A stretch of DNA of 64,000 nt from NCBI GenBank assembly GCA_017454295.1, contig JAFTDF010000042.1:484-64483 (forward strand). Direction: 5' to 3'. Shown one piece after another: positions 2,013 to 61,696 of this stretch; positions within the stretch are counted from its first letter, which is position 1, and the number at the start of each line of letters is the position of its first letter. Under the pieces are notes generated by a model, which ran no database searches, was not told where the DNA came from, and was given only the letters and a program-made list of their open reading frames with translations. The stretch comes from Bacilli bacterium (lineage in GTDB: Bacteria; Bacillota_I; Bacilli_A; RFN20; CAG-826). The position numbers and the translations under genes were made by a program.

Positions 2013-2041
2013 CAAGCCAATTATACTACTAGCAAGAGGAG

Positions 2042-35542: not shown

Positions 35543-35637
35543 AAGCCAGTTGCCTCATTTCCGGCAGCTGGCTGTCTAGAATCGTAGACCCTTTAGCTTT
35601 GCGTCGCCAGATCACTCTGGTTTTGCTTTTGTCGGCT
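35543..35637 (-). promoter_or_regulatory. c-di-GMP-I (GEMM-I)-like riboswitch, copy 2
   Basis: The minus strand reads GACAAAAGCAAAACC-AGA-GTGA-TCT-GGCGACGCAAAGC-TAAAGGGTCTA-CGATTC-TAGACAGCCAGCTGCC. A hairpin follows (CCAGCTGCC/GGCAACTGG) with CTTTTT directly before the ATG at 35539. Confidence 0.8.
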
Positions 35638-38828: not shown

Positions 38829-39566
38829 TTATTTCCCTCCTAGTAAGTCGGCGCGGCCGATGTCGCCGATGGTGGTGACGATGCCTTTGCCCAAATCGAT
38901 ATAATGCCGCAAGGTGGTGGCATAATCTTCCACCGTATAGGCCTTATCCAAGAAACGGGAGACCGTTTTCACGCCCACAAAGGGCACATGTCCCAAATAG
39001 CAGGCCGTGGCGATGCCACCCATATTGGTTTCCAAGACCACACGTTCCTTCGCCCCATAGAGGAATTCGCCCGAGGTCATTTCCTTGAGCTGTTCCATTT
39101 TGGTGAAGGCGACGTTGGTGGAAACGTAATTGCATACCGCATAATGGCCGATGCCCCGCTTCTCAAAGGAATCGGAGAGATAGCCCACGATATCCTCTTG
39201 GCAGAGGAAGTAAGGCGGGAAGCCCGGGATTTGGCCCATTCTCGTGCCGGCTTCGGCGGAAAGATCGACGTCGCCACTAAAGACACGGCCGGAAATGGCG
39301 ATATCCCCGGCTTTGAAGTCTTTGGAGAAAGCCGTGCAACGGCCCACCCCGATGACGAGGATCGCCAAATACTTCTGGATTAAACCCAGCATGATGGCGG
39401 AGGAAAGATAATTGGTGAACATCCCTTCGACGAGGCAGACTTCCTGATTGAAGATGTTCCCAAGGGTCAACTTGTAACGGTCTAAATAGGTTTCGGTGTG
39501 CTTCCCGGTCATGATGGAGTCGAAATAGAGGACGTCATCATGGGTGGCGCCGACGATCATAATCAT
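38829..39566 (-). CDS. Divergent MTA/SAH-nucleosidase-like (PNP_UDP_1 fold) protein
   Basis: By eye it aligns with MtnN (IVGATHDDV.., VLETNMGGIATAC.., VGVKTVSRFLD). The catalytic Asp of the SD motif appears replaced (VSR), and the GSAGG loop is GRCTA. Confidence 0.5.
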   Translation of the reverse strand: MIMIVGATHDDVLYFDSIMTGKHTETYLDRYKLTLGNIFNQEVCLVEGMFTNYLSSAIMLGLIQKYLAILVIGVGRCTAFSKDFKAGDIAISGRVFSGDVDLSAEAGTRMGQIPGFPPYFLCQEDIVGYLSDSFEKRGIGHYAVCNYVSTNVAFTKMEQLKEMTSGEFLYGAKERVVLETNMGGIATACYLGHVPFVGVKTVSRFLDKAYTVEDYATTLRHYIDLGKGIVTTIGDIGRADLLGGK

Positions 39567-41104: not shown

Positions 41105-41925
41105 TGCTTCTCCTCCGGTTGTTCTTCGGGTTTCGGCGCGGCTTTCTTGCTGAGCATCTCTTGGAGCATCTCGTCTTTCAGGCGTTTTAATTCGGCCTCG
41201 GAAAGCCCTTCTAAAGAGACGTCTTTCTTTGGGGCTTCCGCCGTGACTTCTTCCGCGGGCTCTTTCATGGCTTTAAAGATATCCATGACGGAAACGATGA
41301 CCAAATAGAAGGCGGGGATCAAAAGCAAGACGAATAAGCCCCAAGGCGAGGCGACAAAGCCAAAGACGGCGCCTAAGAAATCGCTATGGAGCACCACTTT
41401 ACCCAAGATAAAGCGTTCCGTGAAGGCCTGATATTGGCCCGGGTGGGCCGCTTTGCCTTCGGGGTTAATCCCAGCCACGATAAAGGTATAACGCCCTTGG
41501 CCGGAAGCTTTGCTTTGGTCGATATGGATTTCCTGGACGCGGTGGGTCATCGGATAACCGGTGGGAATGGTCCGGTCATAAAGGCTCTTGTCTTCGGGGA
41601 CGGTATATTCGGTGGTATCGGTGCAGCGGTCCATGAAGGTGATGTCGATGGTTTCGCCCCGGAGAAAGGCCTGATAGAGCTTCTCCGGATCCTCGCGATA
41701 GGTGATGATGGCGGAGTTGACTTTGTATTCGGGTTCCATGGAGTTGGTCCGAACCACGAAATTGCCCACACCGAAGCGAATCGGCTGACTGAAATATTCG
41801 TCCTTATGGACCATGGATTCGATCTGCCCTGCCCCCACGGCGAGGAAAAGGACGCCGACGATGCCGACGAGGACCCATTCGATAATGCGACGGGCTTTAG
41901 ATTTCTCTTTCTTCACCCGTTTCAT
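41101..41925 (-). CDS. sipW: Archaeal/ER-type signal peptidase I (SipW-like, S26B) with a C-terminal TM and charged tail
   Basis: N-terminal TM, catalytic-Ser box VRTNSMEPEY, His box GYPMTHRVQEI, a second TM near aa 190-220, then a K/E/P-rich tail. Confidence 0.8.
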   Translation of the reverse strand: MKRVKKEKSKARRIIEWVLVGIVGVLFLAVGAGQIESMVHKDEYFSQPIRFGVGNFVVRTNSMEPEYKVNSAIITYREDPEKLYQAFLRGETIDITFMDRCTDTTEYTVPEDKSLYDRTIPTGYPMTHRVQEIHIDQSKASGQGRYTFIVAGINPEGKAAHPGQYQAFTERFILGKVVLHSDFLGAVFGFVASPWGLFVLLLIPAFYLVIVSVMDIFKAMKEPAEEVTAEAPKKDVSLEGLSEAELKRLKDEMLQEMLSKKAAPKPEEQPEEKQ

Positions 41926-47919: not shown

Positions 47920-48978
47920 TTATTCAGCGTCGGTATGGGCTTCAGCGGTGAAGCGGATACCAACGTTGAACTTGGCACCAACGGTCTTGGTTTCGTCCCA
48001 AATGGACTTAACATCAACGGTGTCGGAACCAGAAGTCGCAGTTTTGGTGCTGAGTTCGGTCCAGCCTTCAAGATAAATCTTGAGGTTCACATAGAGGTTC
48101 TTGGTGGCGGAAGTGGAACCGATTTCCTTGCCCACGATAGCGGTCGCGGTGGAATCGTCGGCGACACCGACGACGTTGCTGGTGACTTTGGTGTTGGCAG
48201 TCGCAACAGCGGTCTTCTCGTTGACGCCATAGAGCACATCGGCACGGCCAGTGCTAAAGTCATAACCTTCAGTTTGATCGATGATACCGTCGTTGTTGAG
48301 GTCGAGCTTGCCATACACCTTGACGGGGTCGGCGCTCTTGGCAAAAGTGGCGTAGTCGGCAAAGACGGGATTGCCGGAATCGGGGGCCGTAACGGCGGAA
48401 ACGCCAACTCGAAGAGCGGAGGAGACATCAATTTTGCCAGAGGGGTTGTCGGTGGCGGCCTGAAGCGTCACGTCAGAGACGTAGATCTTCTTCGCAAGAT
48501 AAGAATCGGTGTCCGCACCAGTCACGTCTTTTACACGAATTTCAAGAGGAATCACAATGTAATCGACTTCGGCGCTAGCTTCTCCCCAAGAAGTCATCTC
48601 GGCGTATTGATAAATCGGGTTCTTGTAGAGCGTAGCGGCAACTGCACCAGCGGCAAGTTCGCCGGAGGTAACCGGGCGAAGTTCGTTGGTAGCAGCGGTA
48701 CGGTTGGCGCCGCCATTAGCGGTGGTCGCGGCCAAATAAGTGGCAATGTCGGTAGAGGTTAAATCCTGCTTCCATTCGCCAAAGCCATCGGTTTTGGTGG
48801 AGCGGATACGGATTTGGATGCTTTCAGAGCAGTGAGCAGAGGCACCAGAATAGGCGACGGTGCTACGGGTGGAGTATTGATACCAAGCAACGGTACCGGA
48901 GATGGAACCAGCGATGGCGGCACCCATGGCGATGGCCATAGAAGCGATCGTGGCTTTCTTTAAGGTGTTAGTTTTCAT
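47920..48978 (-). CDS. Secreted TasA-like fibre-family paralogue, putative major subunit (352 aa)
   Basis: Signal ...GAAIAGSISGTVAWYQYS. C-terminal motif LYVNLKIYLEGWTEL...GAKFNVGIRFTAE. Codon usage (GGT/ACC/GCT/CGT rich) looks biased towards high expression. Followed by a hairpin. Confidence 0.65.
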   Translation of the reverse strand: MKTNTLKKATIASMAIAMGAAIAGSISGTVAWYQYSTRSTVAYSGASAHCSESIQIRIRSTKTDGFGEWKQDLTSTDIATYLAATTANGGANRTAATNELRPVTSGELAAGAVAATLYKNPIYQYAEMTSWGEASAEVDYIVIPLEIRVKDVTGADTDSYLAKKIYVSDVTLQAATDNPSGKIDVSSALRVGVSAVTAPDSGNPVFADYATFAKSADPVKVYGKLDLNNDGIIDQTEGYDFSTGRADVLYGVNEKTAVATANTKVTSNVVGVADDSTATAIVGKEIGSTSATKNLYVNLKIYLEGWTELSTKTATSGSDTVDVKSIWDETKTVGAKFNVGIRFTAEAHTDAE

Positions 48979-49789
48979 AAGCGTTTATTTCAACTCCTAA
49001 TTTGATTGTGGCTCCAACAGGAGGAGTCATGTCGTCTCTGGATTGACGGTCTTCACCTTCAAGCCAGGCGACGAGGGTGTACCTGCGGATGTCGTCTGCG
49101 CGGAACCCGGGCACAGTGTAACGGGCTACGGTCTCGCCGGAGAGGAAGAGCTCCGCTAAAGGGTGGTCCTCGTCTTCGGTCCGATCATAAGAAGCCTCGG
49201 CAATGAACTCGCGACGGGTTCTGGTCCCGTCGGGGAGGTAATTGTATTCGGCGGCTTCTTTGGCGTAGACCTTGTAATTGTGCTCGGTACTGTTGGCCTC
49301 GTTATCGAAGATCATGACCCTGAGGGTGTCATCGAGCTTCCGCTCGGTGCCATCATCGGTGGGTTTGCTCTCCGTGATGTTAAACGAGATGTCGTACTTC
49401 GCGGTCTTCTTACCGACGTTTTTCACGTAGAACGTATATTTGAAATAATTCAAAGTCGTCCAGGCGTTCTTATCGTCGTAATTGGCCCCGAGGGTATAAG
49501 GGGAATCCTCGTTATCCAAAACCTCTCCAGAGGGAAGGGCATGGAACGTGGTCTCCTCATACGGTCGTAAATCGTCGATACGAAGGAGCGACTCTGGTTT
49601 TTCAAACGAAGCCTTTTCGCTTAGCGACAACCCCACTTCACCGTTATTGACGGAGACCGTGAATGTCCCAACGAATCGGCCAAGGAAAGCAATGATGCTT
49701 AAAGACACCAGCCCCGACGTGGAGGCACCCACGACGATCCAGGCGGCGATCTTCCTTTTCCGTTTTCTCACTAAGTCAAGTTCGTACAT
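48968..49789 (-). CDS. Membrane-anchored TasA-like family member with a degenerate signal motif (273 aa)
   Basis: The TM is followed by GRFVGTFTVSV, compared with GGTFAWF in its paralogues. It shares the C-terminal motif YTLVAWLEGEDRQ...ATIKLGVEINAYE. First gene after riboswitch copy 3. Confidence 0.6.
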   Translation of the reverse strand: MYELDLVRKRKRKIAAWIVVGASTSGLVSLSIIAFLGRFVGTFTVSVNNGEVGLSLSEKASFEKPESLLRIDDLRPYEETTFHALPSGEVLDNEDSPYTLGANYDDKNAWTTLNYFKYTFYVKNVGKKTAKYDISFNITESKPTDDGTERKLDDTLRVMIFDNEANSTEHNYKVYAKEAAEYNYLPDGTRTRREFIAEASYDRTEDEDHPLAELFLSGETVARYTVPGFRADDIRRYTLVAWLEGEDRQSRDDMTPPVGATIKLGVEINAYEN

Positions 49790-49829
49790 AAACGATCGTG
49801 CTTCGGTACAGAAAGCACTATGTGTCCCA

Positions 49830-49966
49830 ATGGGAGAAATAAATACCAGTTGCCTATCATCCAGTGTGATCTGGTGGGTATTTCTCCCTAAGGCAACTGG
49901 CTATCTAGTGAACTAGACCCTGTAGTTTTGCGTCACCGCATCGCTGCGGTTTTGCTTTTGACTCGC
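49830..49966 (-). promoter_or_regulatory. c-di-GMP-I (GEMM-I)-like riboswitch, copy 3, with a terminator-type expression platform
   Basis: The minus strand reads GTCAAAAGCAAAACC-GCA-GCGA-TGC-GGTGACGCAAAAC-TACAGGGTCTAG-TTCA-CTAGATAGCCAGTTGCC. CCAGTTGCCT then re-pairs with AGGCAACTGG (49855-49846), followed by TATTTATTTCT. Confidence 0.8.
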
Positions 49967-50076: not shown

Positions 50077-50460
50077 CTACTTGTTATCGGAGTTCAGATC
50101 CTCGAGAAGTTGCTTCCGGAGGGCTTCCTTCTGCTCATCCGAGAGATCGTTGACTTTGATCGGCTCTTTCTTCGTGGATTTCCGCACATAGATGACTAAG
50201 CCGATGATATTGCCGGCCAGCAACACAAATAGCGGAATGACATAGGAGACGAGATAGACCGTGGGGTTATTTTGGAGATAACCGATATAGCCTTCGGCGG
50301 TAATGATCTCGGCCGCGGTTTTACCAACGGTGTTGGCCAACATAATAATGTTGAATACGGCCAGCCCCAAAGTCGCGATGATATCGATGACAAGAAGGGT
50401 AATGAGCAATGGTTTTTTAGCTTTGTTCATACGGGAAACTACCGATTTTTCGGCTTTCAT
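50077..50460 (-). CDS. Small membrane protein (about 3 TM) with a charged C-terminal tail
   Basis: Hydrophobic segments. Co-directional, 50 nt downstream of the 320-aa fibre-family gene. Confidence 0.55.
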   Translation of the reverse strand: MKAEKSVVSRMNKAKKPLLITLLVIDIIATLGLAVFNIIMLANTVGKTAAEIITAEGYIGYLQNNPTVYLVSYVIPLFVLLAGNIIGLVIYVRKSTKKEPIKVNDLSDEQKEALRKQLLEDLNSDNK

Positions 50461-50510
50461 AAGTTTATAACCGAATAACGAGAATTACAAAACGATATTT
50501 TTGATGAGGA

Positions 50511-51473
50511 TTAGGACGCCTTGTATTCACGAGTATAGAACTTCATAGTCGCAGCGACTTTGTTGAAGTGCTCGGCCGTCGAAACAATGGAAGGATCGGT
50601 GCCTTCAAACCAAACCACAACAGTGAAGGTGAGCGCAGTTTGAGTGGCATCTTCAGTGGCTTTCCCAAATTTACCTAAGCAAGTGTATTCCGCAGAATCT
50701 CCAGTAGAATAATCTGTGGTAAGCGCGGTTCCTTCGCCATGCTTCGCTTCCATAGTATTTGAAGCCATGATGGTCTTCCCGGTATAGGTTTTCCCGCCGG
50801 TATAATTGGTAGCGATAGTGTACGCTGTGGCATCGTCAACATAATGAGGCTGGTTTGCGGGGGTTGCGTCATTGGTCGCGCGTTTAGGAGCCCAAACGCG
50901 CTTGTTTGCGACGCTGTTGGCAGTGGGTGTCGCACCAACAAACGCCACGCGGAAACCTTTAATAGTGTCCTCTACGGCAGACTCTTCCTGGGCAGCAACC
51001 GCGCTGTTGGGATCGAAGAACAGCAGAGCTGCGCCTTCGGTGTTGAATTTATAGGTAAAGGTCATTTGCCAAGAAACGGCCCACCACATATCTTTGCCGG
51101 TTTCAAAGTCATCTTTCGCCTTCCAAGCGCTGGCGGCATCTCCAGAAGCCACAACTCGACGAACGCCAGAATTGTTTTCACTAGAGGCGGTATAAATTGT
51201 GCCGGCCTCATGGTCATAAGAAGCGTGAGTAAGAACATCTCCTGTGGCCATGACAAAGGTGTGACTGTCTCCGTTGTCAGTGGTGGTTCCGCCAATTGCG
51301 TTGCTCATGGTAACGGACAAGTCGCCACCCATTGGTTTGACTTCGAAAACGCTTCCCTCAACGGTTGCGGAAGTCACGGACGAGAACCAAGCAACGGTTC
51401 CACCGACGGATCCAGCAGCGGCAAGCAATAAGACGCCAAGAGCAGGGACAACGAGTAATGATTTTTTCTTCAT
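50511..51473 (-). CDS. Secreted TasA-like fibre-family paralogue (320 aa), second putative structural subunit
   Basis: Signal MKKKSLLVVPALGVLLLAAAGSVGGTVAWFSS. C-terminal motif LTFTVVVWFEGTDPSIVSTAEHFNKVAATMKFYT. Strong RBS AAGGAG. It has its own riboswitch-like leader. Confidence 0.65.
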   Translation of the reverse strand: MKKKSLLVVPALGVLLLAAAGSVGGTVAWFSSVTSATVEGSVFEVKPMGGDLSVTMSNAIGGTTTDNGDSHTFVMATGDVLTHASYDHEAGTIYTASSENNSGVRRVVASGDAASAWKAKDDFETGKDMWWAVSWQMTFTYKFNTEGAALLFFDPNSAVAAQEESAVEDTIKGFRVAFVGATPTANSVANKRVWAPKRATNDATPANQPHYVDDATAYTIATNYTGGKTYTGKTIMASNTMEAKHGEGTALTTDYSTGDSAEYTCLGKFGKATEDATQTALTFTVVVWFEGTDPSIVSTAEHFNKVAATMKFYTREYKAS

Positions 51474-51518
51474 AAATGTTTATCTCCTTAGTAGTGAGGT
51501 CCTATATAACGACAAAAG

Positions 51519-51618
51519 CCATTCATGAGGGCCTCACTGAATGGATGATAGGCGATAGAGCTTGCATTGCGCGTCGCCAGCGGGGTTTGGGACGTCCTCG
51601 CCGCTTATGCTTTGCGTA
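51519..51618 (-). promoter_or_regulatory. Divergent GEMM-I-like leader, copy 4, with a terminator hairpin
   Basis: The minus strand reads CGCAAAGCATAAGCGG...CCGCTGGCGACGCGCAATGC. This keeps the GCAAA and GGCGACGC-CAA-GC cores, but the first hairpin is long and not GNRA-capped. CCATTCA-N12-TGAATGG plus CTTTTG follows. Confidence 0.45.
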
Positions 51619-51621
51619 TAT

Positions 51622-51650
51622 AGTTTAGGCAAGATATTCGGTTTCGTCAA
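51622..51650 (-). promoter_or_regulatory. Promoter upstream of riboswitch-like leader copy 4
   Basis: The minus strand reads TTGACG-N17-TAAACT. Confidence 0.55.
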
Positions 51651-51662
51651 ATGGAAAATATA

Positions 51663-51688
51663 CAGAAAAAGAGCCGATGGCACGGCCA
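51663..51688 (-). terminator. Weak terminator-like hairpin after the LRR gene
   Basis: The minus strand reads GGCCG-TGCCAT-CGGCT followed by CTTTTTCT. The stem is short. Confidence 0.35.
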
Positions 51689-51735
51689 TTTTTCATCATT
51701 TTGCGTTTATTTTTCCTTTGAGAGATCCGCGTGAT

Positions 51736-54700
51736 TTATGCGCTAATCGCGGTGATCAAAGCGGCCTTTTGTTCAGAGGTTTTACCAACCCAAGCATCAG
51801 CGTCGGCTTTGCTGTTGCACAACAAGAACCACTTGTCAGATGCAGATCCCGTATCGAGCGTCGTCCAATAACGGGTAGAGGTGCTTCCCTTCAAAAGATC
51901 CTCGGAAACGCTGAAGGGGAAATAGGCCGTGTTCTGATCGATGAATGCTCCATTGGGATAGCGTTTGACGTTGTCGCCGGTCCGAGACCCGTTTTCGCAA
52001 GCAATATCGGCCTTTTGGCCCACCAAAATCGCAGAGCCGTTATTCAAGCCGGTGAACGGGCTGGTGACTTTTGGTTTCTTATTACTTTCGGTAACGCCCT
52101 GCATATCGTCTTTAATGCCTGACTCCGGCAGCAAATCGGGGTCACACCCAACATAAAGGGAATCCGAGTTCGGAAGGTGAATGTATTGAATCGCTTTGCA
52201 ATTCTTAAAAGCGGATTGACCGATGGAACGAAGCGAGGTGCAGCCGGACAAATCCAAGATCCCCGTTGTCTTTTCACGAGCATTCGCATCAAAAGGCACC
52301 AAGGCCGTTTTGTCGCCGTTCCACTTGAAATAAGAGTACGCGGCCCCGCCGGTCAAATTGGCGAGCTTCGGACATTCCTCAAAGGCCCCAAATCCTATTT
52401 TTTCAATATGCGTCATACGCGTGAAGTCGACGGTAGTGAGATTCGGGTTTTTGCGAACCGCACCAAGGGAAGTTCCATAATTCGCATATTTCTCCCAATT
52501 GTCCTTTCCGGTGTTGCCGGCGCGTTGAATCACATCAAAGCGGCTCGACTCAATCAATCCGCTATAGTCGCTTGCATACCCAGAGCCAATAAATCGAATT
52601 TGGGAATTGACCGGGATCTCGATTTCGGTAAGCGCAGCATTGTGGCTCATCGCAGACCCATAAATGGTGCTGACGGTGGCTGGGATACTGATTTTCGTAT
52701 AAGCGGTATTCGCCAAAGCGTGAGGGGCAATCGCTGCCGTTCCGGAAGTCACTGCACAAGTACCGGTGGAATTCGCCGTTTGGGAAAGCAAGGTTTCTTT
52801 TCCGGAACCAGTGTAATAAATGCCGTCGTCTTGCAAAGCAAAGGAATTGGTATTGGTGGCTAGAGAAACGTCGTCAATCAGGGCAGAGGCATTGGGCATG
52901 ACGGAAAAGGCACCGGTTCCTAAGAACGCCACGTCGCCTTCAATATCCAAGGCGGCGAAACGGTTGTTAAAGAACGCCAGGGCCTCAATCCTCGTCACGG
53001 AGTTTGGCAAAACGCAATACCCGCTCTTGCCCGCTACGCTGACTGGAGTGTCATTATTGTCTTTGTAGGTGACGAATTGTACGCCGCTTGTGTTCGTCGT
53101 TCCGGTGTTATGGCGGAAGAAAGCCCGTTCGCCGATGGTGGTCACCGACGTCGGCAAAATCACGGTATTGCCAGGAATTGGCTCGCCCGCAGCCTGTCCA
53201 AAGCATCCGGAACCGATTTCGATGATTTTCGGGTTTAACGTGGTATTTAACGTCAGATCAACGATGCTTTGGTCCGACACGCAATAGCATCTGGTCGCGA
53301 TGTAGTTATTGCCGCTTTTCACAAACGCCACCGTATTATGAGAGTCGTTGATTGAGGTGTTAAGGGAATTGTCCGTCAAATCAAGATATTCCACTCCATT
53401 GGTCCAAGTAATCACGTCGCCGGTGTCATCGCACGACACCCCATAATAAGTAGGGATGGTCCGCCGCAAAGAGGCAAGGGAGGCACTCGAAGTAGAACCA
53501 AATTGATCCCGATAGCATTCCGAAGGATCGGCGTTCCACCAACGGCCCACCCCGGTCTCTTGGTTGCTAGAGTGAATGCTGCTTTGGGCTTTATCGACAT
53601 AGATAACCGCGTCAGGGTATGAGAACTGCTCCGCCGCGTTTGTGGAATAATTCCCGAAAATCGGAGCCCCAAAAGTTCCACTGCCGTTATTGTTGCCCCA
53701 TAGGGTGTATTTTTGGTCGACTCCGCTGACCAAAGAAGATACATAGAAGAACAGTTCTCGGATTGCCACGCATCCCTTGAAACAATTTTGCCCGACATAG
53801 CAGAAGTTTTTGTTCGAGACGAAGCGAAGCAAAGACTTGCAGTTTTCGAACGTCGACATGCCGAAGGAGGAACGGGGCTTTGTGCCGGTGGAAACGTTTT
53901 TATTCCAAACTTGAACGGATCTTAAGCAATTCGCTCCTTTGAAGGCATAAGGCAAAACCGGGCTGGTCCAGGTCTCATAAGTCTCTTCCGGGCGTTTGTT
54001 TCCATCGAGGTTCGTCGGCTTCATGTTACCGCAAGTGTTTTCATGAAGACGGGGGGAAATATATAAATCAACCTCACCCGTTCCTTTGCCGGTTCCATCG
54101 CCGTTTTCGGTGCAGTTATAACCCAAATTCGCAAAGGCATAGCGGCCGATAAAAACGGTTTGCAGGTCACCCGGGCTATCGGAATCGTTGGCCATAAAAG
54201 AAAACTCGCTGACCGCCCGGAAATCGTAGAAAGAGTAGGCGCCGATATATTTCAGACATTTCGGGAGCCGCAATGAGGTCAAAAGGGTATTGGGGACCGA
54301 CCCCGTTTTCCCTTGGAACACTTCATAACTGACTTCGAGCAAACTCGTGCAACTAGAGAAATTCAATGCAGAGATGTTTAGGCAATTATAAAAGGCACGG
54401 TTCCTGATTTGGACGAGTCCGGAATTAAAAGTGACGCTTCGAATATCCTCGTTGGCGGCAAAAGAGTTGGAGTCTAAAACCTTGACGGTCCGATTCGTTC
54501 CGTTCGAATCTTTGAGTTGGTTGGGAATCGTTAGGGCGCCGCTTGCCACATCATAATATCCGGGAATTGTGCGGTTCGGTGTTTCGAACTTAAAGATTTT
54601 GGCATACGTTCCAGGGTTGTTTTGTATGGTTTTGGAACCAGCCGCAGTGCCTGTCGTCGCTTGGTCGAATGGAATGTTCGCGGTTTCGATGGTGTAATAC

Positions 54701-55662
54701 AAGCCTGGGTAATCGTCTGGCATTTCGGTAATTTGACCGGACTCAATTTCGATTGGCACGTAATCCAGTTTTTCATCGGTCCGCCCTGTGGCAACATGGC
54801 GTTTACGCCAATTCACGTCAAAACCGGGATTGGTGCTATGGGTCGGTTCGGTGTCACCGGTGTAATAGAGGGTAAGCTTCTCGCATTCGGCAAACGCGAA
54901 TTCCCCTACTTCATTCATATTTTCCTCGAAGTAGCCAAGGGTCATGCTGGTGCAATCGGCAAAGGCGTATCGCCCAATCGTGATATTGTTAGTCCAAGCC
55001 GAAGCCGCGTTCTTCGAGGGGAAGAAGAAACTCATCATCTTCGAGCATTTCTGGAAGGCGCTTTCGCCGATGTTGACTAAAGAAGAGGGGCACGGGAACG
55101 ATAAAAGGCTCTCGCAGTTGGTAAAGGCATGATCTCCCACTATGGTGATTTTCGAATTGGAGGTCGTCGTCCCACCAGAGCCGTTGCTGTAATTAACCCG
55201 TTCCAAAGCGCGGTCATCTAAGAATGTGGACGGGGCGATTTCCGTCACCTTCGTGGGGAAGGTAAACGACTGAAGATTCAAACAATAAGCAAAAGCTTCC
55301 GGTCGAATCTCCTCAACAGTGTTGGGAACGGTGACCGTTTCGAAATCGCAGCCACGGAATCCGCCTTCTACGATGGCTTTAACGGTATAAGGGGTACCGC
55401 TAACCGTAATGGTTTGAGGGATCGAGTGATTGGTATCCGTGTCCGCGGACCCCTTGTTCCATCCAACGGCAATCCCGCTGGCATCGCCGGTGATGCGGTA
55501 ACACTTATATTTGTCATCTGGCGAAGTGAAAGAACCGGTGGTGTCGATAATCAACTCCGTCGCAATCACGCCGAGCGAAGCGGCGCCAAAAGAAATCACC
55601 GATAAAATTAGAACGAGCCATGGAACGACTCGCTTGGATAGCTTTTTGCCAAAAATCCTCAT
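51736..55662 (-). CDS. Giant BspA-type leucine-rich-repeat surface protein (1308 aa)
   Basis: Many repeats of the form I(G/P)..AF..C..L..(I/F).(I/L)P..(V/L) (for example AFAYCLNLQSFTFP, AFTNCESLLSFPCP, AFQKCSKMMSFFFP). Ordinary N-terminal signal/anchor. ATGA overlap with the upstream gene. Confidence 0.8.
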   Translation of the reverse strand: MRIFGKKLSKRVVPWLVLILSVISFGAASLGVIATELIIDTTGSFTSPDDKYKCYRITGDASGIAVGWNKGSADTDTNHSIPQTITVSGTPYTVKAIVEGGFRGCDFETVTVPNTVEEIRPEAFAYCLNLQSFTFPTKVTEIAPSTFLDDRALERVNYSNGSGGTTTSNSKITIVGDHAFTNCESLLSFPCPSSLVNIGESAFQKCSKMMSFFFPSKNAASAWTNNITIGRYAFADCTSMTLGYFEENMNEVGEFAFAECEKLTLYYTGDTEPTHSTNPGFDVNWRKRHVATGRTDEKLDYVPIEIESGQITEMPDDYPGLYYTIETANIPFDQATTGTAAGSKTIQNNPGTYAKIFKFETPNRTIPGYYDVASGALTIPNQLKDSNGTNRTVKVLDSNSFAANEDIRSVTFNSGLVQIRNRAFYNCLNISALNFSSCTSLLEVSYEVFQGKTGSVPNTLLTSLRLPKCLKYIGAYSFYDFRAVSEFSFMANDSDSPGDLQTVFIGRYAFANLGYNCTENGDGTGKGTGEVDLYISPRLHENTCGNMKPTNLDGNKRPEETYETWTSPVLPYAFKGANCLRSVQVWNKNVSTGTKPRSSFGMSTFENCKSLLRFVSNKNFCYVGQNCFKGCVAIRELFFYVSSLVSGVDQKYTLWGNNNGSGTFGAPIFGNYSTNAAEQFSYPDAVIYVDKAQSSIHSSNQETGVGRWWNADPSECYRDQFGSTSSASLASLRRTIPTYYGVSCDDTGDVITWTNGVEYLDLTDNSLNTSINDSHNTVAFVKSGNNYIATRCYCVSDQSIVDLTLNTTLNPKIIEIGSGCFGQAAGEPIPGNTVILPTSVTTIGERAFFRHNTGTTNTSGVQFVTYKDNNDTPVSVAGKSGYCVLPNSVTRIEALAFFNNRFAALDIEGDVAFLGTGAFSVMPNASALIDDVSLATNTNSFALQDDGIYYTGSGKETLLSQTANSTGTCAVTSGTAAIAPHALANTAYTKISIPATVSTIYGSAMSHNAALTEIEIPVNSQIRFIGSGYASDYSGLIESSRFDVIQRAGNTGKDNWEKYANYGTSLGAVRKNPNLTTVDFTRMTHIEKIGFGAFEECPKLANLTGGAAYSYFKWNGDKTALVPFDANAREKTTGILDLSGCTSLRSIGQSAFKNCKAIQYIHLPNSDSLYVGCDPDLLPESGIKDDMQGVTESNKKPKVTSPFTGLNNGSAILVGQKADIACENGSRTGDNVKRYPNGAFIDQNTAYFPFSVSEDLLKGSTSTRYWTTLDTGSASDKWFLLCNSKADADAWVGKTSEQKAALITAISA

Positions 55663-58600
55663 CCTCCGCCACCTCCTGCTTCAGGCCATGACTTCGTTGT
55701 TGCGGTGTAATGTTTCGAGTTCAAGTAATATGAAGGCGAAGATGCTCGGCAATAAGCGAGGACGCTCGTGGTGCAGGCATTGCCTTCAGTATGGTTGAAA
55801 AGCAGTTGAATATCCCCAGAAGCATGGGTCGTCACTTCCATCTTCCCAGGAGTGTTATCGAAATAAGCCCGGAACGAGAATTCCGCCTTATTCAAATTCT
55901 CTTGGATGATTGGATCGGCATCTAAGCCGGTGTTGGATCGCAAGAAATCGATGGGCTTGGCCGTTCCGCCGATGGAAATGATGTCGGCAGCCCCAAGTTC
56001 GGCGGTGCTTTGGCCTTGGACGGCAAGGAAATAAAGATTCGCGGAATTGCCGCCTTGATTGGATTTGCCGGAAGCGCCAATGATATAGTCGCCATGCGGC
56101 AAGGTGAAAATATGGGCATATAGAACCCCAGAATCGGTCATGTTGCCTTCTACCGTATTATCGATAGCGGTCGCCGTCGTTCCTTCTTCGAAATCGTATT
56201 TGAAGTAACGATGGGAATCCATGGCACCCGTGTTTCTGGATTTCATCGTATAGCATTCTTTGATGTCGTTGGTGGATTTGGTGGGATCAAAACTATAGAT
56301 GCCGATGTCGTTGCCATTACCGACCACAGAGACGTTGGCAAAGGCGCTTTCGATGCGGAAGACAATGGAGTTGGCCGGATAGTAACGGGTTCCCTCCGAG
56401 GTTTCAAAGCGAGCCTTCCCTTGATCCGGCTTTTTAATCGGCATGTAAGAGGAGAGTGCATTAATCGGCTCATTCAAAGAGGAACGGAACATAAACCCGA
56501 AGCGGGAAGACCCGATTTCGACCGGTTGGTTTTCTTGGTCTCTGAGCTTCGAATAAAGGTAGGTTTGCAAGAACGGGCTGTCGGTATTGAACATGTAGTT
56601 TTTGCCGACCGGTTTGTTTTCTTCGGCAAGATCCAATTCGAACACATAGTTAAAGTCCCGAGAGAATGGGTAATCGAAGGAATGGATATCGGGGTATTCA
56701 AAATTCGGATAAGAAGGCAAAGTCGTGGCTTTTTGCGGGTAATTCGAGCCCGTCCATCCAGCGAAACCGGTTCTGGTCCAATCGCATTCCGCGGTGGAGA
56801 AATATACTTTGGTTTTCGGGGTTGAGCCGTTGATGATTTGACATTGCCCCATATTGTCACGCCAATAGGTGCCATAGGCGCCAGAGGCGGCGGCATCGTT
56901 TTTGGTGGTCACCAATTTAAAGACCCCCATGCCGCGGTCAATCCCGTTCTCTTTGTCGTCTTGGATGATCTTATTCCAAAGGAAGTCGACAGATTGGAAT
57001 TTGCTGAGTTGATTTTCCGGTATCGTATAATTGCTGCCAAACCCAGGGGGAATATCCGCTCTTTCCTCAGAGGTGAAATCCGAAATATCAAATGAGGTGA
57101 CGTAATGGACCGGATCGGCCTCGTCGTGGCGAAGGAATTCTTTGTAACGGTCAAAGGTTAAGCTCTCCGCCAAATGGTCTCCCGTCGCGGATCCACCTTC
57201 TTGCCCATAGGAAACGAAGTACTTGGTGTTGGACGAGGAATCGGTCGGGGAGCCGGCGAACGCGGCGTCTCCAGCATTAAAATCCGAACGAATCATAGAA
57301 TAGATACGGGTAAAGTTCATAACACCGGTGTCACCATGATCGGTCAAACCAAAATCAGGATTGATTTCGTTGATTAAGCTCGAATCCATTTCCCCAACCA
57401 AGCCGGTGTCGGTTTCGGTGGGGGTTTTCACATTGTCGGTTTGGTTGAATTTGAGTGTTCCGCCAAAGACGTAGCAATAGGTCATTTGCCCGTCGAGGTG
57501 GCCGGCCAAAAAGCCGATGTTGTTACCATGATGGTAATTGGGGGCACCTTCCCCGTGGAGATAATCGCAATAAATGTCGAGCGAGTATTTTCCTTCTTCC
57601 CAAGTTGTGCCGTTGGAAAGGAAAGAGAGCGTGTAACTTTGAATCACTCGGGAGAACGTCACACCCAAGCTCACCGGACGCACCGAGGCCACCAAATAAA
57701 TGCGGGTCCGGACTTCTTTTAGAGCCCCGGAGTTGAAATCTTTGGAATCCTTCAAAGGCCCAAGATCAATCCCCATGACTTCATCAAGTTTGCCGTCGCC
57801 ATCGACGTCACGCTGTTCTTTCTTCAGGAAGCCAATGGAAGAACGCCACTCATAGGTGAAGGGATCATCAGGGTGGGCCGTTTTGCTTGGGAACACGGGC
57901 TTAAACCAGCCTTTGGCGTATTTGGTATAGTCCGCGGCCGTGGTTTGACTTTCCCCGGCGCTTTCTAAATTGCTGGGATTATTGATGTAACTGCGGTGGG
58001 TCATGCCGTCTCGCTTTTTTAGCGAAACGCTACCCCGGGTATCGTCATATAAGAGCAAATCCGCTTCCGAAGCGAAATAGTCGGCATCGTCATAAAGGGG
58101 ATTCACCGCCGTGGCAAAATCGTCGACGTCCGCGGAGAACAAAACATTGTCATCGTCCCCTTCCGTGGGGTTATAACCGGTCGACTCGATGGTGATATCC
58201 TGCGTGATGACGTTATGGACGTATCCCTCCTGGGAAATGTAGCCAAACATGCCGATATCTTCCGGATTGCCGGCGATATGCAGGTTTTTGATAACGATAT
58301 CGTTGCCGCGGAATTCGCCGCAAAACGGGGTCCCTTCGCTGCCGATCGGCAATAACGTCCCTTCCCAAGCGCTCATATCCAAGTATTTGACCGGACGGTT
58401 ATCCTCGAGGCAATAGAACCCGGGGACGAAATCGTCGATCCCCTCAAACTCCGTGAAATAGTGACCCATCTGCCATACGCTGGGGGTTCCATACATGCCA
58501 AGGCTTTGCAACCGGGTGAGGTTATATAAGTGATTCGGGCTGGTGATTTCATAAGGGTGGGCTGGGGTGCCGTCTCCGGTGTAGTAATAACTGCGAAGCC

Positions 58601-58733
58601 CAATCTCCCCGTCGACGACATTGGTTTGGCCCCCGGGAAGCAAGAACCAAGCCATGCTAACGGTCAATGCGAAAACCGGTACCAAGATGGCAACAAGCGA
58701 TGCAAGAATGCCCCTGATTGCGTATTTGTTCAT
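55659..58733 (-). CDS. Giant secreted adhesin-like protein (1024 aa) with a SipW/TasA-type signal motif
   Basis: N-terminus ...LVPVFALTVSMAWFLLPGG, then AHPYEITSPNHLYNLTRLQ and PFCGEFRGNDIVIKNLHIAGNPEDIGMFGYIS. Paralogue of 30802-34680. Confidence 0.7.
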   Translation of the reverse strand: MNKYAIRGILASLVAILVPVFALTVSMAWFLLPGGQTNVVDGEIGLRSYYYTGDGTPAHPYEITSPNHLYNLTRLQSLGMYGTPSVWQMGHYFTEFEGIDDFVPGFYCLEDNRPVKYLDMSAWEGTLLPIGSEGTPFCGEFRGNDIVIKNLHIAGNPEDIGMFGYISQEGYVHNVITQDITIESTGYNPTEGDDDNVLFSADVDDFATAVNPLYDDADYFASEADLLLYDDTRGSVSLKKRDGMTHRSYINNPSNLESAGESQTTAADYTKYAKGWFKPVFPSKTAHPDDPFTYEWRSSIGFLKKEQRDVDGDGKLDEVMGIDLGPLKDSKDFNSGALKEVRTRIYLVASVRPVSLGVTFSRVIQSYTLSFLSNGTTWEEGKYSLDIYCDYLHGEGAPNYHHGNNIGFLAGHLDGQMTYCYVFGGTLKFNQTDNVKTPTETDTGLVGEMDSSLINEINPDFGLTDHGDTGVMNFTRIYSMIRSDFNAGDAAFAGSPTDSSSNTKYFVSYGQEGGSATGDHLAESLTFDRYKEFLRHDEADPVHYVTSFDISDFTSEERADIPPGFGSNYTIPENQLSKFQSVDFLWNKIIQDDKENGIDRGMGVFKLVTTKNDAAASGAYGTYWRDNMGQCQIINGSTPKTKVYFSTAECDWTRTGFAGWTGSNYPQKATTLPSYPNFEYPDIHSFDYPFSRDFNYVFELDLAEENKPVGKNYMFNTDSPFLQTYLYSKLRDQENQPVEIGSSRFGFMFRSSLNEPINALSSYMPIKKPDQGKARFETSEGTRYYPANSIVFRIESAFANVSVVGNGNDIGIYSFDPTKSTNDIKECYTMKSRNTGAMDSHRYFKYDFEEGTTATAIDNTVEGNMTDSGVLYAHIFTLPHGDYIIGASGKSNQGGNSANLYFLAVQGQSTAELGAADIISIGGTAKPIDFLRSNTGLDADPIIQENLNKAEFSFRAYFDNTPGKMEVTTHASGDIQLLFNHTEGNACTTSVLAYCRASSPSYYLNSKHYTATTKSWPEAGGGGG

Positions 58734-58763: not shown

Positions 58764-59705
58764 TTAAGAAATCGTGAATGAGAAAAAATAATCGTAGATC
58801 GCCCGAATCCGATGGTCGCTGGTCACGGCTTCGCGGAATTGTTTCAGCTCTTCCGGGGCATAATTGACGTTGATATAAGCCACCGCTTCATAGGGTTCTT
58901 CTTCCGCGGGCTCAACGAAATCGATCCCCACTTGATCCCCAATCACGGCGACACGGGAGACATCGTCTTCATAGAAGTTCACGTGGCTAGCTTCTAAGGA
59001 CGATAAATACGAAATCTTATAATAAACTTTCTCCAGCTCAGTCAGCTCCCGAGTCAAATAAGAGGGGATGTATTTGGTATAGGTTTCGGTATCCTCGTCA
59101 TAAAGCGGGTTTTCCGTTTCTCCCGTTTCCGCCAAATCTTCCGGAGTGTAAATATCGAAGTCGACGCAGGTAGAAAGCAAGGTTTCGTCTTCTTCGGGCG
59201 ATCGATCGGGCAGTTTCACAGCAGCGGCCCTTAAGTCCGCTAGCGACGTAAACTCGTTGGAGGAGAACGTCACTTCGAAAATCGCATTGGAATTGAAATC
59301 GATTAACGGGGTCCCTTGGATGAATGTTTCCAATGGATCATAGAGATTCATCACATCCACCTTCACCCATTCGTCGTCAACGGTTTCCCCAAAGGAAGGC
59401 GGCTCGCCTTCAAAATCGTAATAGAAGCCCTTGACGTAATAATGGTTATCCCCGGATTTATTGGGGCGGGTATAGTCGATGCCGCCGATACCATCATCGG
59501 GGAACACGAATTTAATCAAGCGAACGCTTTTAATGCTGGCATTGCGGTTCATGACTTGGAACTGCGATGCCTGGGCAGCGGCGTCGGTTTGGGACATAAA
59601 CCAAGCGAAAGTTCCACCGAAAGCAGAGAGTAACGATAAAACCAGCGTCGTCGTGGCTGCGACGATGGTCCGGATTCCTTTTCTTGACCCTTTGTTCTCT
59701 TTCAT
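58764..59705 (-). CDS. Secreted protein (313 aa) with a SipW/TasA-type signal motif; partner of the giant adhesin
   Basis: N-terminus ...LVLSLLSAFGGTFAWFMSQ. First gene after riboswitch copy 1. The C-terminus resembles that of 34682-35539. Confidence 0.65.
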   Translation of the reverse strand: MKENKGSRKGIRTIVAATTTLVLSLLSAFGGTFAWFMSQTDAAAQASQFQVMNRNASIKSVRLIKFVFPDDGIGGIDYTRPNKSGDNHYYVKGFYYDFEGEPPSFGETVDDEWVKVDVMNLYDPLETFIQGTPLIDFNSNAIFEVTFSSNEFTSLADLRAAAVKLPDRSPEEDETLLSTCVDFDIYTPEDLAETGETENPLYDEDTETYTKYIPSYLTRELTELEKVYYKISYLSSLEASHVNFYEDDVSRVAVIGDQVGIDFVEPAEEEPYEAVAYINVNYAPEELKQFREAVTSDHRIRAIYDYFFSFTIS

Positions 59706-59707
59706 GA

Positions 59708-59826
59708 AAAACCAGTCTGCAATGAATCAACTTAGGTTTCCCCAAGCTTTCTTTGGCAGCTGGCTGTCTTATTCAAGACCCTTTAGCATTGCGTCGCCAG
59801 ATTACTCTGGTTTTGCTTTTGACGAT
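59708..59826 (-). promoter_or_regulatory. c-di-GMP-I (GEMM-I)-like riboswitch, copy 1
   Basis: The minus strand reads GTCAAAAGCAAAACC-AGA-GTAA-TCT-GGCGACGCAATGC-TAAAGGGTCT-TGAATA-AGACAGCCAGCTGCC. A hairpin follows (CCAG-CTGC / GCAG-A-CTGG) with TTTTT abutting the ATG at 59705. Confidence 0.8.
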
Positions 59827-59830
59827 TCCT

Positions 59831-59858
59831 ATTTTAGGAAACTCGATTTCCATGTAAA
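59831..59858 (-). promoter_or_regulatory. Promoter upstream of riboswitch copy 1
   Basis: The minus strand reads TTTACA-N16-TAAAAT, immediately upstream of the aptamer. Confidence 0.6.
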
Positions 59859-60000: not shown

Positions 60001-61074
60001 CTATTTTTTGATTCCCGCCGCGTCTTTGCCGCTGCGCTTGATGATGTAAACCTCTTTATCGGCTTCGCGAATAAAGGCGTCGAGATCCTCGGGAGAACGG
60101 AGATGGCCACAATAGGCACCGACGGAGCAACTCATTTTTAAGTCGGGAGCGTCTTCTAAGTGAATCGCTTTGACTGCGGCCACCATTTGGTTGCCGATTT
60201 CCAGCAAATCATGAGCCGAGGTGTTTTCTTGGATGATCAAGAATTCATCGCCCCCGAAACGGATCACCTCGCTGGCGTTGGAAGTGGCTAAGGCCTGCCC
60301 CACTGCCATTAAGGCAAGGTTGCCAATCGGATGGCCATAGGTATCGTTGATGTGCTTTAAATCATCGACGTCGATAAAGAGGACGCCAAGTTGTTCCTTC
60401 TCGTCGATATGGAGGGTTTTCTTATATTCCACCAAGAACGAATGATTATGCAGTCCCGTCAAGGAATCGGTAAAGGCGAGCTCCCGGAAGCGGCGTTGGT
60501 TTTCTAGCAAGGTGGCGTTGATATGGGAAGTCGCTAACGCGGAGATGACACCGAGGATAAAACCGGTGAGGAACACCATAAAAAAGACAAGCTTAAACGG
60601 CCCATCGAGCATGGTGTTGTTTTGCTGGGTTTGGGGAAGTAGCAAGAACACCGAAGTCTCGATGAAATAAACGATGGCCGCGGTAAACCCAGGCAAGAAA
60701 TCCAAGAAGAGCATCGCCGAGACCCCGGCAATCGGGGCCCAGAACAAAATCGAGGGTACGTATTTAGCGGCAAATAAGAAGCACGTGCATACCCCAATGC
60801 TTAAGACCGTGGAGACCCAAGAAATGATATACGTGACCCGTTCGCTGCCTTGATAGGCGACGTGGAATATCGTGACGGGCAAGGAGAGTCCCGCGAGGGT
60901 TAAAAGGGCGGGGACTAGTGCCCAGTCTTTATACTGCACCATCAATATTCCCGCGACTAAGGCGGAGACGGTCAAAAGCACGAGCAACATCCCCACGCAA
61001 GCATGGAGACGTTTCCGGTGATCGGCGAAATACGTGCCGAAACGTTCTTTGAACGAAGTTGGTTTTCTTTTCAT
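60001..61074 (-). CDS. Membrane-bound diguanylate cyclase (intact GGDEF)
   Basis: About six TM segments, then FTDSLTGLHNHSFL...LFIDVDDLKHINDTYGHPIGNLAL...IRFGGDEFLII. The start was moved to MKRKPTSF at 61074. Confidence 0.85.
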   Translation of the reverse strand: MKRKPTSFKERFGTYFADHRKRLHACVGMLLVLLTVSALVAGILMVQYKDWALVPALLTLAGLSLPVTIFHVAYQGSERVTYIISWVSTVLSIGVCTCFLFAAKYVPSILFWAPIAGVSAMLFLDFLPGFTAAIVYFIETSVFLLLPQTQQNNTMLDGPFKLVFFMVFLTGFILGVISALATSHINATLLENQRRFRELAFTDSLTGLHNHSFLVEYKKTLHIDEKEQLGVLFIDVDDLKHINDTYGHPIGNLALMAVGQALATSNASEVIRFGGDEFLIIQENTSAHDLLEIGNQMVAAVKAIHLEDAPDLKMSCSVGAYCGHLRSPEDLDAFIREADKEVYIIKRSGKDAAGIKK

Positions 61075-61204
61075 GGGGTATGGCTCCGATAGAAATGGGT
61101 TTCGAATAATCCATTGTAATCTCCCGAGGCGTTTTTGTGAAACGAAACTCGCCCGCCGGGTTTCGGGTTCAACGCTTCGATTTGCTTTGTCGCTTAACGC
61201 GTTC

Positions 61205-61696
61205 TTATCGTTCAAAAGCGAGGCGGGGAGAGCCGTCGTGCCCCACCTTGATCGTGCCACGACACACAAACCCTTCTTTTCTCAGCAGGTTTTGCATCAC
61301 CCGGTTTTCCTCATGGGTATCGATACGGAGATGCTCCACAAAAGAGGATGCATAGGCGATCGCCAAGGAGCCAATTCCCTTCATTTTTCCGGAAGAGGCG
61401 ATTCGGTGAATCACCCCATAAGGACCTTGGTAAGCCCAAGCTCCCGTCACCATATGGACATAGGTGGGTTCCACCTCAACCCCGTAATCGAAAAAGAACG
61501 TTCCCACGATTTGACCCGCTTCTTCCACCACATAGTTTTTCCCTTGGGTGATGTCCTCACGGATGAGTGTTTCCGGGGGCCAGGCGTGGTCGCCCCATTG
61601 ATGGGGATTCCCCATGGACGCCATGAAATCGCGGGCCCGAACGAAGATGGCCATTAAGGCCGGCAAATCAGCAAGCGTTCCTTTGCGAATGGTCAT
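61205..61696 (-). CDS. GNAT-family N-acetyltransferase
   Basis: 163 aa. The acetyl-CoA loop region is RIASSGKMKGIGSLAIAYA. The start was moved to MTIRKG at 61696. Confidence 0.65.
   Translation of the reverse strand: MTIRKGTLADLPALMAIFVRARDFMASMGNPHQWGDHAWPPETLIREDITQGKNYVVEEAGQIVGTFFFDYGVEVEPTYVHMVTGAWAYQGPYGVIHRIASSGKMKGIGSLAIAYASSFVEHLRIDTHEENRVMQNLLRKEGFVCRGTIKVGHDGSPRLAFER

Follow-up and report, generated by a model that had tools for sequence, protein, structure and literature searches.

The window analysed here is a stretch of 64,000 nucleotides (nt) from a Bacilli bacterium (contig JAFTDF010000042.1, positions 484 to 64,483). It carries three copies of the cyclic di-GMP (c-di-GMP)-I riboswitch aptamer, also called GEMM-I (Rfam family RF01051). 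We focus on copy 1, which precedes the gene for a protein of 313 amino acids (aa). The features of this locus, together with the other two aptamers, are the following.

60001-61269, minus strand: gene for a GGDEF-domain cyclase, immediately upstream of the copy-1 promoter.
59831-59858, minus strand: promoter-like site TTTACA-16-TAAAAT, 10 of 12 consensus matches, from a consensus scan only.
59752-59827, minus strand: GEMM-I aptamer copy 1, RF01051 at 53.8 bits (gathering score 35), model positions 1-87 of 87, E = 1e-7.
59707-59765, minus strand: intrinsic terminator or sequestering hairpin of copy 1, from the minimum-free-energy fold.
58764-59705, minus strand: first regulated gene, 313 aa, ATG at 59705-59703, no Shine-Dalgarno (SD) sequence.
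50077-58733, minus strand: remainder of the copy-1 operon, four genes behind the 313-aa gene.
49889-49966, minus strand: GEMM-I aptamer copy 3, RF01051 at 58.5 bits, with A at the position of G20 in the c-di-GMP-I aptamer Vc2 (A20).
35560-35637, minus strand: GEMM-I aptamer copy 2, RF01051 at 56.8 bits, likewise A20.

The matches were obtained with Rfam release 15. All three are minus-strand matches over the full length of the RF01051 model, with E values from 1e-7 to 7e-9. An earlier sequence-only reading had assigned the element to GEMM-I from blocks and two hairpins shared by the copies. The significant RF01051 matches in three of three copies agree with this assignment, and the shared blocks and both hairpins were all seen on the minus strand. 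Read from 59827 to 59752, copy 1 is AAUCGUCAAAAGCAAAACCAGAGUAAUCUGGCGACGCAAUGCUAAAGGGUCUUGAAUAAGACAGCCAGCUGCCAAA, in which AAAAGCAAAACC is followed by the P2 hairpin CCAGA-GUAA-UCUGG (59810-59797), GGCGACGCAAUGC, the hairpin GUCUU-GAAU-AAGAC and AGCCAGCUGCC. The second of these blocks is present as described, except that its exact form is GG(C/U)GACGCAA(A/U)(G/A)C. Copies 1 and 2 have the P2 hairpin CCAGA/UCUGG where copy 3 has CCGCA/UGCGG, the two compensatory pair changes reported before, and the P2 loop is GNRA in all three copies (GUAA, GUGA and GCGA). The equivalent of A47 is present in copy 1 at 59790, and so is, at 59756, what we take to be the equivalent of C92 in Vc2 numbering. The RF01051 score of copy 1 was the same in a permissive scan, and that scan, run over 30000-64000, contained no fourth copy, even a degenerate one, at E <= 1.

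Compared with Vc2 and the RF01051 consensus, the window copies share the full-length covariance-model match, the GC/GC closing pair, P2 with its GNRA loop, the GACGCAAA junction with its intercalating A, P3 with the conserved CUAnAGGG...AGCCAG core, a C at what we take to be the position that pairs with one ligand guanine, and a site in the 5′ untranslated region near GGDEF and EAL genes. They differ in having A instead of G at the Hoogsteen-contact position G20. In copy 1, moreover, P1 is very short or absent, the expression platform competes for the P3 3′ strand, and the start codon lacks an SD and abuts the terminator U-run. The variant model RF03167 (c-di-GMP-I-GGC, gathering threshold 59 bits) gave 55.4 bits for copy 3 and 48.9 for copy 2, both below threshold, and copy 1 is better fitted by RF01051. 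Two related loci, L009 (2045-2119) and L010 (2165-2239), carry an aptamer before a copy-2-type operon (251 aa plus 1221 aa) for which RF03167 is the best model, at 60 bits in L009. Since the L009 and L010 aptamers just pass and window copies 3 and 2 fall short, the subfamily is borderline between the two models. The class itself is well known from textbooks, and 59707-59827 (minus strand) is a genuine c-di-GMP-I riboswitch class member by sequence and structure, the G20 base excepted.

A search of 5.8 billion clustered proteins yielded only 15 relatives of the 313-aa protein, and every one of them stems from a metagenome assembly. We compared the leaders on the contigs of these relatives and at two loci from rumen metagenome-assembled genomes (MAGs) labelled 'uncultured Erysipelotrichaceae'. 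According to Rfam, GEMM-I precedes the 313-aa orthologue in L001, L002, L003, L004, L005, L009, L010, L011 and L012, and it also precedes the equivalents of the copy-3 and copy-2 operons in L001/L002 and L009/L010. Twelve distinct aptamers, three from the window and nine from related metagenome or MAG loci, were then scored on the Rfam structure (alignment A2). Standard pairs occupied 93.0% of the cells, compared with 22–37% when partners were slid by 1–3 columns, and both sides had changed at 9 of the 19 pairs. The covariation score was 0.337, as opposed to 0.179 ± 0.021 for shuffled alignments, and was reached by none of 500 shuffles. The covariation first proposed from the window copies is thereby borne out in homologous leaders.

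Some of these relatives depart from a single aptamer per leader. In L009 (6776-6925), and likewise in L010, a complete aptamer is followed by a second AGACAGCCAGUUGCC...GGUAACUGGCUUUU unit and then an SD-less AUG; this unit corresponds to the aptamer 3′ half plus terminator, as if part of the riboswitch had been duplicated. Tandem GEMM-I aptamers of the same P3 subtype, 40–90 nt apart, occur on the metagenome contigs L032, L037, L047, L049, L076, L083, L110 and L125, several with KRK...GxFxV genes downstream. The riboswitch is not obligatory for the operon: L006, L007 and L008 carry the three-gene operon without GEMM-I and behind another short leader. This leader (L007 9880-10000, L006 300-425, and L008) has the shared sequence GUAAAYGGUYCU.AGRAGAGU.G.AAAU.UACGCAU..., continues with a hairpin CCUAUCAUU-AUGAUAGG, GGGG, a U-run and GUG, and gave no Rfam match. 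It may be another regulatory RNA.

We next consider how the aptamer is connected to gene expression. The copy-1 promoter-like site ends 3 nt upstream of the aptamer match, so that the 5′ strand of P1 would be very short. Copy 3 has a promoter-like site as well (TTGCAA-17-TATATT). Because of these sites and of the strong terminators that close the preceding operons, the copies appear to lead three separate transcription units. In all three leaders the P3 3′ strand, GCCAGYUGCC, can alternatively pair with a downstream GGCAACUGG or GCAGACUGG, after which a U-run follows. In copy 1 the terminator 5′ arm AGCCAGCUGC (59765-59756) is at the same time the P3 3′ strand, the 3′ arm GCAGACUGG lies at 59720-59712 and the U5 run at 59711-59707, so that the layout reads AGCCAGCUGC with GCAGACUGG(UU), then U5, C and AUG. 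At the base of the minimum-free-energy fold, CCAGCUGC pairs with GCAGACUGG, leaving one A bulged, and the loop encloses an inner hairpin, CUUGG-GGAAA-CCUAAG. In copy 2, AGCCAGCUGCC pairs with GGCAACUGGCU and U5 runs straight into AUG, the terminator arms GCCAGCUGCC/GGCAACUGGC plus U5 standing directly before ATG (35539). In copy 3, GCCAGUUGCCU pairs with AGGCAACUGGU, followed by AUUUAUUU. The sequence-only reading had the U5 run of copy 1 touching the ATG; copy 2 does show this contact, whereas in copy 1 one C (59706) lies between U5 and the ATG.

The minimum-free-energy folds of all three leaders keep P2 and the inner P3 hairpin, and the lower P3 3′ strand re-pairs downstream. Enforcing the lower P3 cost 6.9, 5.4 and 5.2 kcal/mol over the terminator fold in the three copies; for copy 1 the values were -37.2 kcal/mol for the terminator fold and -30.3 kcal/mol with P3 enforced. 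As the terminator fold is the more stable one, it should be the unliganded default, and ligand should therefore give read-through, i.e. an ON switch. For this class of aptamer, switches of the ON and of the OFF type have both been documented (PMC9262584). The alternative pairing and the terminator, predicted before for copy 1, recur in all three copies and in orthologous leaders. In L001/L002 the order is P3 3′ strand, inner hairpin, GCAGCUGGCG, U6 and AUG. The platform is kept there although the inner-hairpin sequence differs, which argues for selection on structure. A GC-rich stem followed by U5–U6 is likewise kept in copies 1 and 2, L001, L003, L009_b, L012 and many metagenome leaders.

The start codon of the 313-aa gene is unusual for this genome. 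Anti-SD duplex energies were scored over the 20 nt before each start, and the three riboswitch-led genes gave -3.2 (copy 1), -5.6 and -1.4 kcal/mol, whereas most ATG-start genes of the window gave -7 to -16 kcal/mol. The organism thus uses SD sequences, with the three riboswitch-led genes as exceptions, and the missing SD that had been noted before the 313-aa gene stands, its value being well short of the usual range. An internal control for SD usage is provided by the only other Rfam match in the window besides the three GEMM-I copies:

1949-2022, minus strand: fluoride riboswitch, RF01734 at 37.5 bits (cut-off 34), followed by a conventional terminator, a GGGAGG SD and the gene for a membrane protein, with its ATG at about 1896.

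To place this start in a wider set, metagenome contigs were scanned for the P3 subtype of the window copies, which gave at least 120 loci, and the first genes were sorted by their N-terminal peptide. Among the matches listed, the three classes were as follows.

AWF-signal first genes (n = 28): U-run to start, median 10 nt, 17 of 24 within 15 nt; median anti-SD energy -5.2 kcal/mol; 5 with an SD at or below -8.
KRK...GxFxV first genes, the copy-3 type (n = 26): U-run to start, median 56 nt; median anti-SD energy -2.1 kcal/mol; none with an SD at or below -8.
All other first genes (n = 74): U-run to start, median 27 nt; median anti-SD energy about -10 kcal/mol; 48 with an SD at or below -8.

The anti-SD value of the last class is biased, as its starts were chosen by best SD, and it serves as a rough contrast only. 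Copy 1 was left out of these classes; its own values are 1 nt and -3.2 kcal/mol. In the more distant orthologues L003 and L004 the terminator is followed by a canonical AGGAGG, so the fused, SD-less layout is recurrent but lineage-specific. L003 (590-660) also shows a start-stop AUGUAA right after the terminator U-run, with the real gene and its AGGAGG SD 42 nt later; the AUGUAA may be a relic of the fused-start layout. Where the hairpin ends 1–6 nt before an SD-less AUG, it would probably also block translation initiation.

A further feature, missed in the earlier reading, concerns ligand recognition. In the cmscan alignments all three copies have an A opposite RF01051 model position 11 (59817 in copy 1). 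In the consensus a G stands here, just 5′ of the closing GC pair; it is the counterpart of Vc2 G20, which contacts one c-di-GMP guanine as its Hoogsteen partner (PMC6140456). The corresponding column 14 of A2 holds A in 9 of the 12 aptamers and G in the remaining 3. Wild-type Vc2 binds c-di-GMP with a picomolar dissociation constant (Kd) and 3′3′-cGAMP (cyclic GMP-AMP) with a Kd of 10 uM; in the G20A mutant the values are 53 nM and 120 nM, and in Cbe 1-2, a natural clostridial A20 aptamer, 30 nM and 463 nM (PMC6140456). By analogy, the A20 copies are predicted to be lower-affinity, potentially bispecific sensors, nanomolar for both c-di-GMP and 3′3′-cGAMP. That c-di-GMP acts as the sole ligand is what we infer.

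The window copies share several traits with the GEMM-Ib riboswitches of Geobacter (Gs1761, pgcA, pilM) and the bispecific Cbe 1-2 of Clostridium beijerinckii: A at the G20 equivalent, an ON logic, predicted for the window copies, in which ligand relieves a terminator, control of genes for extracellular or surface structures and, for Cbe 1-2, a Bacillota host. Geobacter A20 riboswitches are selective for cGAMP. Differences are that the window shows no Ser-type Hypr GGDEF, the neighbouring cyclase having Asn, that its relatives alternate between A20 and G20, and that EAL genes belong to its regulon.

Among the matches listed in the metagenome scan, A20 and G20 occur 18 to 10 in leaders of AWF-type genes, and A20 is found in 20 of the 20 readable copy-3-type leaders, which come from diverse metagenomes. 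Taken together, 38 of 48 readable AWF and KRK-GxFxV leaders have A20, as opposed to 16 of 66 other leaders with A or G of the same P3 subtype. A20 is thus strongly associated with the regulon of SipW-type signals described below, and the cause could be phylogenetic or functional. At the same locus as copy 1, L002 has a G20 aptamer, and from about 59600 downstream its coding sequence matches the window with an identity of 90% or more. Over the leader and signal-peptide region (window 59600-59830, L002 4830-5100) identity falls to 40–74%, and there L002 equals L001. This leader looks like a recombination cassette that swapped an A20 for a G20 aptamer at one locus.

The cyclase gene upstream of copy 1, whose true start is probably the ATG near 61074, encodes an intact GGDEF motif (RFGGDEF). 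It reads NDTYGHPIGN where the solved diguanylate cyclase 5LLW has NDTYGHNIGD. The residue at the position that is Asn here is Ser348 in cGAMP-making Hypr GGDEFs and Asp (Asp344) in canonical enzymes, and Ser/Thr variants require GGDEF, not GGEEF (PMC6456294). Of 120 GGDEF matches, 104 have D at this base-reading position, 6 have S and 4 have N, and in the remaining 6 it could not be read. The Asn is kept in the orthologues P0016 (95% identity) and P0017 (59%), all with GGDEF and not GGEEF. The P0017 gene again adjoins a leucine-rich repeat (LRR)/1097-aa operon, in L133, and a close motif relative, P0023 (LKHINDTYGHPIGS), is Ser-type. We found no report on Asn-type GGDEF variants in the literature searched, and no DncV/CD-NTase gene or Ser-type Hypr GGDEF was seen in the window.

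The genes under control of the three aptamers encode mainly proteins without family assignment. Besides the 313-aa gene, the copy-1 and copy-3 operons contain the following features.

55659-58733, minus strand: 1024-aa protein, copy-1 operon.
51736-55662, minus strand: 1308-aa BspA-type LRR protein, copy-1 operon (LRR_5, E = 1e-60).
50511-51473, minus strand: 320-aa protein with a GTVAWF signal, copy-1 operon.
50077-50460, minus strand: 127-aa membrane protein, copy-1 operon.
50062-50034, minus strand: strong terminator closing the copy-1 operon.
From 48968-49789 to about 35767, minus strand: copy-3 operon, headed by aptamer copy 3.
41101-41925, minus strand: SipW-like signal peptidase, 274 aa, copy-3 operon, with sub-threshold NCBIfam matches to SipW and archaeal signal peptidase I.
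39563-41104, minus strand: EAL protein with EAL and DDFGIG motifs, copy-3 operon.
35767-38826, minus strand: degenerate-GGDEF/EAL protein, copy-3 operon.

The gene order after the riboswitch of copy 1 is the same in L001, L002, L003 and L009. The copy-3 operon further encodes a 273-aa KRK...GTFTV protein, three proteins with GTVAWY/SLAWY signals, an AAA_5 ATPase, a 707-aa protein and a PNP_UDP_1 protein, and the copy-2 operon a 285-aa protein with an AYAWF signal (ATG 35539), then a 1292-aa protein. The similarity between the copy-1 and copy-2 modules is confined to N-terminal regions, and a duplication of the whole module is plausible. The 313-, 1024-, 285-, 1292-, 273-, 352-, 388- and 355-aa proteins matched no Pfam or NCBIfam family. 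The 313-aa protein begins with MKENKGSRKGIRTIVAATTTLVLSLLSAFGGTFAWF, which resembles a SipW-dependent (TasA-type) signal. Its AlphaFold2 model, built on a 14-sequence alignment, is of moderate quality (mean predicted local distance difference test score, pLDDT, 67.4); Foldseek against the PDB returned no match with E <= 1e-3 and only weak ones to beta-sandwich adhesins. In eight proteins of the cluster the N-terminus is first basic, then hydrophobic, and leads to G-[ST]-x-A-W-[FY], a pattern that we take to resemble the SipW-dependent signals of TasA and CalY. The TIGR04088 signal model matched the 320-aa protein alone, and weakly (E = 0.014, 15.5 bits, cut-off 19).

Compared with the SipW matrix-fibre systems (tapA-sipW-tasA of B. 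subtilis, calY of B. cereus and sipW-bsaA of C. perfringens), the cluster presumably shares the TasA/CalY-like signal motif on the regulated proteins and, judging from weak NCBIfam matches, a SipW-like signal peptidase. It differs in that the mature proteins match no TasA/camelysin or other Pfam family, the 313-aa model has no significant PDB match, and the genes stand under a riboswitch instead of SinR-type repressors. We found no report of riboswitch-controlled SipW systems in the literature searched. From this gene context the regulon may serve the cell surface, adhesion or a matrix, with induction by c-di-GMP and feedback through EAL proteins.

The copy-3 leader (49789-49888, minus strand) represents a widely conserved extended platform, which is also found in L001, L014, L020, L036, L044, L058, L061, L072, L073, L075, L087, L090, L105 and L115, among others. 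Its elements are UUAGGG..GAAAUA, a small hairpin, GGAUGAUAGGCA(A)CUGG, a U-rich tract and an invariant CAUUGGGACA box. The SD-less AUGUACGA start of the KRK...GxFxV proteins lies about 40–100 nt past this box. In folds with a closed aptamer, pairing between a GGGAGAAAUA segment and the U-tract is possible.

Considering all of this, we propose that copy 1 is a functional c-di-GMP-I ON switch for the surface-protein operon, with c-di-GMP most likely as its physiological ligand (probability about 0.75). By analogy, it most likely works like the known terminator-based ON switches of the class. Transcription would start a few bases upstream of the aptamer. As long as no ligand is bound, the P3 3′ strand (AGCCAGCUGCC) would pair with GCAGACUGG about 40 nt downstream, and the resulting hairpin and U5 would stop the polymerase just before the ATG. 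A bound cyclic dinucleotide would lock P3 and the junction, including the C that pairs with one ligand guanine; the terminator 5′ arm would then be unavailable, and read-through would take the polymerase into the 313-aa gene and on into the four that follow. On a full-length RNA that loses its ligand, the same hairpin would occlude the initiation region and thereby add a second gate, at translation. The A in place of G20 would tune the affinity for c-di-GMP from picomolar to nanomolar. High c-di-GMP would turn on a surface, adhesion or matrix programme made up of the proteins with SipW-type signals and the giant BspA-like LRR protein, and the EAL phosphodiesterases of the copy-3 operon would provide negative feedback. 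We infer that termination takes place in vivo and that translation is gated too, and likewise what the regulon does. Several observations weigh against this proposal. The cGAMP-sensing GEMM-Ib riboswitches likewise carry A in place of G20; the sole intact GGDEF of the window is non-canonical (Asn for Asp), so that c-di-GMP made by the neighbour is not assured; the copy-1 terminator has a long branched loop with a 39-nt interior and was not reported by a simple terminator scan; the Rfam alignment places a U-U mismatch in the lower P3 of copy 1 and an A-C at the base of P2; and P1 would have at most 2–3 bp if the predicted promoter is correct.

The choice of ligand is the point on which the proposal is most open to an alternative. 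The A20 copies could be GEMM-Ib-type sensors of 3′3′-cGAMP, or of cGAMP together with c-di-GMP, supplied by a promiscuous (Hypr-like) Asn-variant GGDEF. We consider cGAMP or a mixed ligand unlikely. A20 is found in three of three window copies and in 9 of 12 aptamers of A2, its presence in every readable copy-3-type leader among the matches listed suggests selection and not drift, and G20A alone brings the cGAMP Kd of Vc2 from 10 uM to 120 nM (PMC6140456). The adjacent cyclase has Asn at the Asp344/Ser348 position together with the GGDEF motif that Ser/Thr variants require (PMC6456294), this Asn persists in the 95% and 59% identical orthologues, the gene is linked to the LRR operon in a relative, and P0023 is Ser-type. 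On the other hand, Cbe 1-2 binds c-di-GMP better than cGAMP (30 nM as opposed to 463 nM; PMC6140456), and orthologous leaders switch between A20 and G20 (L001/L002, L009_b, and 10 of 28 AWF-type leaders among the matches listed). Furthermore, the regulon includes two genes for EAL domains, a type known for c-di-GMP hydrolysis, no DncV/CD-NTase or Ser-type Hypr GGDEF was seen in the window, and no report of activity for Asn variants was found in the literature searched. The EAL and degenerate-GGDEF/EAL proteins of the copy-3 operon, the G20 allele at the L002 locus and the A20/G20 alternation favour c-di-GMP, which we regard as the probable physiological ligand with a confidence equal to, or slightly above, that in the proposal as a whole.

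The mode of control leaves less room for dispute. The hairpin before the ATG might act mainly as a translational sequestor, the riboswitch then governing ribosome access to the SD-less start, and this would fit a hairpin whose end lies at a distance of 1 nt in copy 1, and of 0 nt in copy 2, from an AUG without SD. The 39-nt branched interior of the copy-1 hairpin is atypical for an efficient terminator, and in L062 and L053 the AUG lies 11–12 nt past the aptamer without a U-run. However, the GC-rich stem and U5–U6 are conserved across copies 1 and 2, L001, L003, L009_b, L012 and many metagenome leaders, and in L003 the hairpin and U-run lie 42 nt upstream of a gene with an AGGAGG SD, where they cannot mask the start. 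Sequestration and termination are compatible with each other, and we judge sequestration improbable as the main mode. Read-through as the main gate, as the sequence-only reading had it, is still the best-supported view given the competing terminator and the missing SD, although a translational block would probably add a second gate. That copy 1 is a decaying or non-functional duplicate within the locus is highly improbable: it has the lowest score of the three copies and several non-canonical pairs, but this score lies 19 bits over the cut-off, its helices are kept by compensatory changes, its platform is conserved in orthologues despite the change in inner-hairpin sequence, and it has a promoter-like site directly upstream and an operon downstream.

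What is unusual in copy 1, namely the SD-less start fused to a terminator, the near-absent P1, the SipW-type regulon and the linked Asn-variant GGDEF, leaves its class unchanged. The U-run fused to an SD-less AUG in a genome that uses SD sequences offers a case for the study of mRNA translation, with one hairpin that may gate both transcription and translation. The A20/G20 allele pair and the linked Asn-variant GGDEF form a compact test of affinity tuning versus cGAMP sensing in Bacillota. There is a small chance that this rumen Bacillota lineage has a second GGDEF-based pathway, in which the Asn-variant cyclase would make 3′3′-cGAMP or a mixed product, and A20 GEMM-I would sense it and turn on a SipW-dependent surface-fibre or adhesin system. 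If true, Hypr-GGDEF/GEMM-Ib signalling would reach beyond the Geobacter, Myxococcus and Bdellovibrio groups and include a new base-reading residue. Three operons of almost unannotated secreted proteins are tied to cyclic-dinucleotide control, which gives a handle on their function in uncultured rumen and gut Bacillota.

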